This document shows positions 63,003-63,357 of a stretch of DNA of 64,000 nt, in pieces. Each line of letters starts with the position of its first letter. The stretch's first letter is position 1. A program made the position numbers and the translations under genes. The notes under the pieces are model-generated. The model saw nothing but the letters and a program-made list of their open reading frames with translations. It had not been told where the DNA came from and did no database searches. This DNA comes from Callorhinchus milii (Eukaryota), in assembly GCF_018977255.1 (NCBI RefSeq), contig NW_024704761.1, positions 5,890,001 to 5,954,000 on the forward strand, in the 5' to 3' direction.

Positions 63003-63357
63003 CTGTTATTCCTTTTGGCTTTGTAGCTGTAATATTTCACAGCATCTTTTCGTCTCAGGAGCTGATCGGAGGGCGTCCTCTGAGTCTGATAGAAAGGATG
63101 GGAGAAAAGTTTGCGGAGTTTAAAGGGACCTGAGTCCTGGGACAAGATCTGGGTCTGTGCTGCACCACTCCTGCCTCCTGCCTGGTGGCTGGACCCCCAG
63201 CTCCTGGGGCTGCAGATTGCCTTGAGGGCTCATCGCAGGTACACTGACTCCTGATTGATCTCTGGTACAACTGGGGTAGGATGTGAAAGAGCAAATCGAC
63301 TGTAAAAGCAACCGAGAGAGCCAGGATAATAAAAAACCTGCTCCTCTTACTCCACAT
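63003..63357 (-). CDS. FAM20A: FAM20A exon 1, coding part, containing an apparent -1 frame break
   Basis: The ATG frame gives MWSKRSRFFIILALSVAFTVDLLFHILPQL...CTC (human ...ADLYFHLWPQV...CPC) but stops at 63055. The -1 frame gives KLRKLFSHPFY...LLRRKDAVKYYSYKAKRNNR|gtaag (human KLQALFAHPLY...ALRYYRRKVARWNR). The exon is 355 nt where 356 is needed. Confidence 0.9.

Follow-up and report, generated by a model that had tools for sequence, protein, structure and literature searches.

An apparent frameshift in exon 1 of Callorhinchus milii FAM20A probably reflects a base lost from a C run in the assembly

Results

FAM20A and its neighbours

The window in this study is the whole 64,000-nucleotide stretch of Callorhinchus milii DNA that was analyzed, and all positions given below refer to it. 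The minus strand contains FAM20A, a gene of 11 coding exons. Coding exon 1 is located at 63003..63357, with the start ATG at 63357. It is followed on the same strand by exon 2 (55920..56101, 182 nt), exon 3 (55472..55522, 51 nt), exon 4 (54124..54202, 79 nt), exon 5 (51381..51473, 93 nt), exon 6 (49013..49128, 116 nt), exon 7 (45805..45985, 181 nt), exon 8 (45071..45180, 110 nt), exon 9 (43824..43905, 82 nt), exon 10 (41252..41311, 60 nt) and exon 11, the coding part of which, with the stop codon, lies at 40461..40728 (268 nt). Exons 2-11 are intact, with AG/GT ends in 10 out of 10 and no second lesion. When exon 1 is joined to them with one placeholder base added, the result is a coding sequence of 1578 nt for 525 amino acids, the protein length that the original prediction had given.

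A search with the exon 1 peptide matched FAM20A of Callorhinchus milii, which also showed that the earlier guess of a holocephalan source was correct. The protein record P0004 (UniRef100_V9KPB3 / XP_007886774.1, 525 aa), the FAM20A Golgi pseudokinase of this species, comes from the same 11-exon gene. The window differs from it in that one base of exon 1 is missing and in that exon 11 encodes E453 where P0004 has D453. With the placeholder at the break, 524 of the 525 positions agree, residue 453 being the sole residue difference.

P0004 contains the Pfam Fam20C domain (PF06702, E 1.2e-97), and against PDB chains it scored 617 bits with FAM20A, 497-519 bits with FAM20C and 249 bits with the xylosylkinase. 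Judged from these sequence comparisons, the gene is the FAM20A orthologue, with a Fam20C-type kinase-like domain that is nearer to FAM20A than to FAM20C or FAM20B. Its neighbour, in tail-to-tail arrangement, is a PRKAR1-type gene, as is expected for a FAM20A orthologue from the position of human PRKAR1A. In mineralisation, FAM20A acts together with the kinase FAM20C. Both proteins are present in PDB entries 5yh2 and 5yh3. Ten shark and ray orthologues of FAM20A are full length (509-540 aa) and 65-73% identical, the identity to five shark orthologues being 70-73%. The best 120 matches did not include a full-length FAM20A from any other named holocephalan.

The neighbourhood contains other features. 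Exons with the Pfam cNMP_binding domain are located on the plus strand at 4127-4348, 7684-7896 and 8739-8951, and by synteny these cyclic-nucleotide-binding exons (4127-8951) probably belong to the 3' portion of PRKAR1A. PDGF-family exons, also on the plus strand, follow at 21881-22051 and 29182-29418 (Pfam PDGF_N, E 1e-4, and PDGF, E 3e-13), so that they separate the PRKAR1-type gene from the 3' end of FAM20A. The closest solved chain is PDGF-A, with 73.6 bits as against 58 bits for PDGF-B. In human, PRKAR1B-PDGFA-FAM20C is the paralogous block, and no PDGF gene is known to lie between PRKAR1A and FAM20A. The PDGF-family gene may thus be a retained PDGFA ohnologue. A literature search on PDGF, PRKAR1A and FAM20A synteny found nothing. 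Within FAM20A intron 1, a stop-free stretch of 505 codons (61111-62628, minus strand) resembles a LINE reverse transcriptase when its translation is inspected by eye.

The frame break in exon 1

As assembled, exon 1 has 355 nt and would need one base more, 356 nt (phase 2). The ATG frame runs for 100 codons and ends at a premature stop codon (63055..63057, minus strand), while the conserved Lys-Leu-x-x-Leu-Phe-x-His-Pro motif is found in the -1 frame. The last upstream stop codon of the -1 frame is at 63232-63230; from 63229 on, no stop interrupts this frame before the GT donor that follows 63003. The original prediction had placed the stop at 63055 and the opening of the -1 frame at about 63230, and both positions were confirmed. 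The frame break is thus a real feature of the assembled sequence. Exon 1 matches the genome once, and neither a second copy nor a haplotig of it was found there.

Upstream of the coding region, a GA dinucleotide repeat (63358-63399, minus strand) ends 2 bases before the start codon. Three protein records of the species (P0001, P0003 and P0005) begin differently at this repeat. The 5' end of FAM20A may be unstable between assemblies at these positions.

Protein records of the same species

The Callorhinchus milii cluster has six members, four of which (P0001, P0003, P0004 and P0005) cover exon 1. All four are unbroken. Up to about Pro52 they agree with the ATG frame, and from there they continue without a gap in the other frame, which is the frame given by one extra base. 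It had been proposed that the ATG frame is loosely FAM20A-like further on, but its translation after residue 51 is absent from these 4 of 4 records. All of them carry D453, where the window has E453, and this suggests that they may share one haplotype different from that of the window. The four records are possibly of one source and were therefore counted as one witness. They do not tell what the sequenced animal carried.

The record P0002 (430 aa) has the E453 of the window. Its first codon is an ATG within intron 1 (56172, minus strand), and exon 1 is skipped. The sequence that was annotated likely had the same exon 1 break, and the start in intron 1 would be a way around it. P0002, which thus begins in the stretch 55921-56172 (minus strand), lacks the N-terminal hydrophobic segment. 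The sixth member, P0006, is a fragment with 89% identity that starts in exon 2 and gives no information on exon 1. A search with residues 1-125 matched only the same-species cluster, and a search of the 50%-identity library found FAM20 relatives, none of which was informative on exon 1.

Position of the frame switch

The position of the break was located by two approaches. The first is a comparison with DNA from public runs. Of 24 runs, 11 contain the stretch or part of it; four were examined, one per study, and one of these four gave a contig. The other three (X1, X2 and X7) yielded none, possibly through filtering, and thus count neither for nor against the extra base. No RNA run was among the 11. 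This contig (hereafter X6) is 416 nt long and covers all 399 bases compared in one piece. It is free of substitutions, and its sole difference is an additional G on the plus strand after 63205. With this base the C run on the gene strand (63206..63209, in the Pro52/Arg53 codon region of the 525-aa record) increases from four to five. The depth of X6 is 2, and a single contig at a depth below 5 can be erroneous. Nine runs had word shares of 0.52-0.72, which were kept out of the evidence. In the second approach, a placeholder base was tried at 354 positions of exon 1. Only at eight positions, 63204-63211, were there no mismatches to P0004, while a placeholder in the heptamer region described below (63110-63130) left 24-29 mismatching residues.

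Because the X6 DNA and the placeholder scan agree, we concluded that the frame switches at the C run 63209-63206, about 80 nt or 27 codons upstream of the heptamers. The original prediction had put the heptamers at the switch itself, and in this respect it did not hold.

The scores of the orthologues, taken by themselves, do not single out the C run. In ten elasmobranchs (10 of 13 rows, P0017-P0019 being omitted as partial isoforms), the mean score is flat at 257-261 for switches from 63213 to 63123 and drops only beyond, and the C-run switch outscores one slip product in 6 and the other in 7 of the ten. Among 106 non-elasmobranch relatives, the peptides from a slip at the heptamers more often have the higher score, in 68 against 34 and in 57 against 46. 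The stem of FAM20A is poorly conserved across orthologues. Since the C-run switch loses in 68 and 57 of the 106 relatives, a loose likeness to the human stem cannot locate the switch.

The tandem heptamer

Two overlapping look-alikes of the X_XXY_YYZ site, 63127-63121 and 63124-63118, occupy 63118..63127 on the minus strand. U_UUA_AAC is the coronavirus-type -1 frameshift heptamer. The heptamers had been described as in register with the ATG frame, and this is true of the assembled sequence with four C and of that sequence only. In the five-C allele, the ten bases are the codons for Pro-Phe-Lys and the first base of a Leu codon, outside the -1 register.

Taken alone, the tandem heptamer is uncommon. 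In 5000 dinucleotide shuffles of 63231-63058, two in-frame sites occurred in 0.2% and at least one in 5.2%. Given Pro-Phe-Lys, on the other hand, the three homopolymer codons are expected about once in 16 under equal synonymous use. Eight such tandem runs exist in the window on both strands, and exons 2-11 (1221 nt) contain two single in-frame heptamers.

The heptamer is not conserved. Of the 119 relatives compared, 14 do not fit the motif pattern. In 92 of the 105 that do, Ser-Lys precedes the motif, and Phe occurs there in none (0/105); the UUU codon therefore cannot occur there. The 78 nt downstream of the heptamers fold with -14.4 kcal/mol (z -0.34 in a fold without pseudoknots), and 58 of 200 shuffles were as good. 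Two hexamers (63109-63104 and 63051-63046) had been suggested by eye as a pairing downstream of the heptamers. Both are present, but the proposed pairing is absent from the minimum-energy fold, in which another pyrimidine run, located farther downstream, is the partner of the purine run.

Discussion

Origin of the break

Homopolymers are the usual place of long-read consensus errors, and homopolymer indel errors create false frameshifts in genome assemblies. The break in FAM20A shares with such cases the loss of a single base from a five-base run, a loss that is absent from other data, and like them it is accompanied by no other lesion. The missing base is present at the homopolymer in other sequence, namely in X6 (at depth 2) and, by their reading frame, in the protein records. 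In other records of the species the C is present and the gene unbroken, and a sequencing error is therefore likely, rather than a ribosomal frameshift. We consider a homopolymer consensus error in the assembly, with one C lost from a run of five, to be the explanation with a probability of roughly 85%. The assembly consensus would have under-called the five-C homopolymer at 63209-63206. With five C, plain triplet decoding would give the full Golgi pseudokinase of 525 aa, and recoding would be unneeded. We thus infer that the loss originated in the assembly and not in the animal. The explanation ranked first in the original prediction was an indel introduced by the assembly at a short homopolymer, and X6 and the placeholder scan support that ranking. 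A literature search found nothing on this type of error in the elephant shark.

It is worth considering that the sequenced animal may carry a true one-base deletion allele in the C run, in which case it would likely be heterozygous. The stop at codon 101 would probably lead to nonsense-mediated decay and the allele would be null, with the normal allele of the species intact. Slippage also occurs naturally in short homopolymers, and the haplotype of the window, with E453, differs from that of the intact records. In a conserved gene, however, a null allele private to one animal would be rarer a priori than a homopolymer consensus error, and the sole contig obtained, X6, has five C. Exon 1 is present in one copy in the assembly, so that neither allele is seen on a second haplotig. 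This explanation seems improbable to us, though well worth keeping in mind.

A true allele with four C would put the tandem heptamer in register. A few ribosomes might then slip by -1 and accidentally rescue a natural null, and the product would be a FAM20A of almost full length whose 27-residue stem is changed. Such a rescue appears very improbable.

Even less credible is programmed -1 ribosomal frameshifting as the normal decoding of FAM20A. What the gene has in common with programmed -1 frameshifting is the heptamer sequence and its register in the assembled frame; the rarity of two in-frame sites among the shuffles and the orthologue scores, which alone permit a switch as late as 63123, also speak in its favour. 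The differences are considerable. The switch (63204-63211) lies off the heptamer, which is not in register when the allele is intact, and the same-species records (4 of 4 unbroken) require no shift. Neither break nor heptamer is conserved, Phe being encoded in none of the 105 motif-bearing relatives. No stimulatory structure above chance was found downstream in a model to which pseudoknots are foreign, and the codons themselves are expected about once in 16 given Pro-Phe-Lys, with similar runs elsewhere in the window and single heptamers in exons 2-11. FAM20A is not virus-derived. According to a preprint (PMC11451614), every vertebrate -1 case described has a viral origin. Two findings had been named in advance as decisive against this mechanism, an extra base in other sequence and a break upstream of the heptamer. 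Both were made, X6 providing the former, and programmed frameshifting is thereby refuted as the norm of the species.

Just as implausible is pseudogene decay of FAM20A in the lineage, in connection with the tooth plates: the single break in one sequence speaks for it, but the same species has an intact 525-aa record, the other ten exons have canonical splice sites and no lesion, and identity to the five shark orthologues is still 70-73%. A unitary pseudogene would have a lesion fixed in the species, usually with further decay, and neither was found here; pseudogenisation in its species-wide form, the second suggestion of the original prediction, is thus not supported. The ten full-length shark and ray orthologues conflict with pseudogenisation and programmed frameshifting alike.

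Implications

The slippery-site frameshift, as it was framed, is not a real biological feature. Under the homopolymer error, the exon illustrates how the loss of one base upstream of Pro-Phe-Lys codons can give the look of a -1 slippery site. A one-base correction of the reference sequence is likely to be needed. Studies of tooth-plate and cartilage mineralisation should not interpret P0002, the 430-aa record without the N-terminal anchor, as a sign that the gene is lost or truncated. The biological weight of the break is small: FAM20A is intact in Callorhinchus milii.
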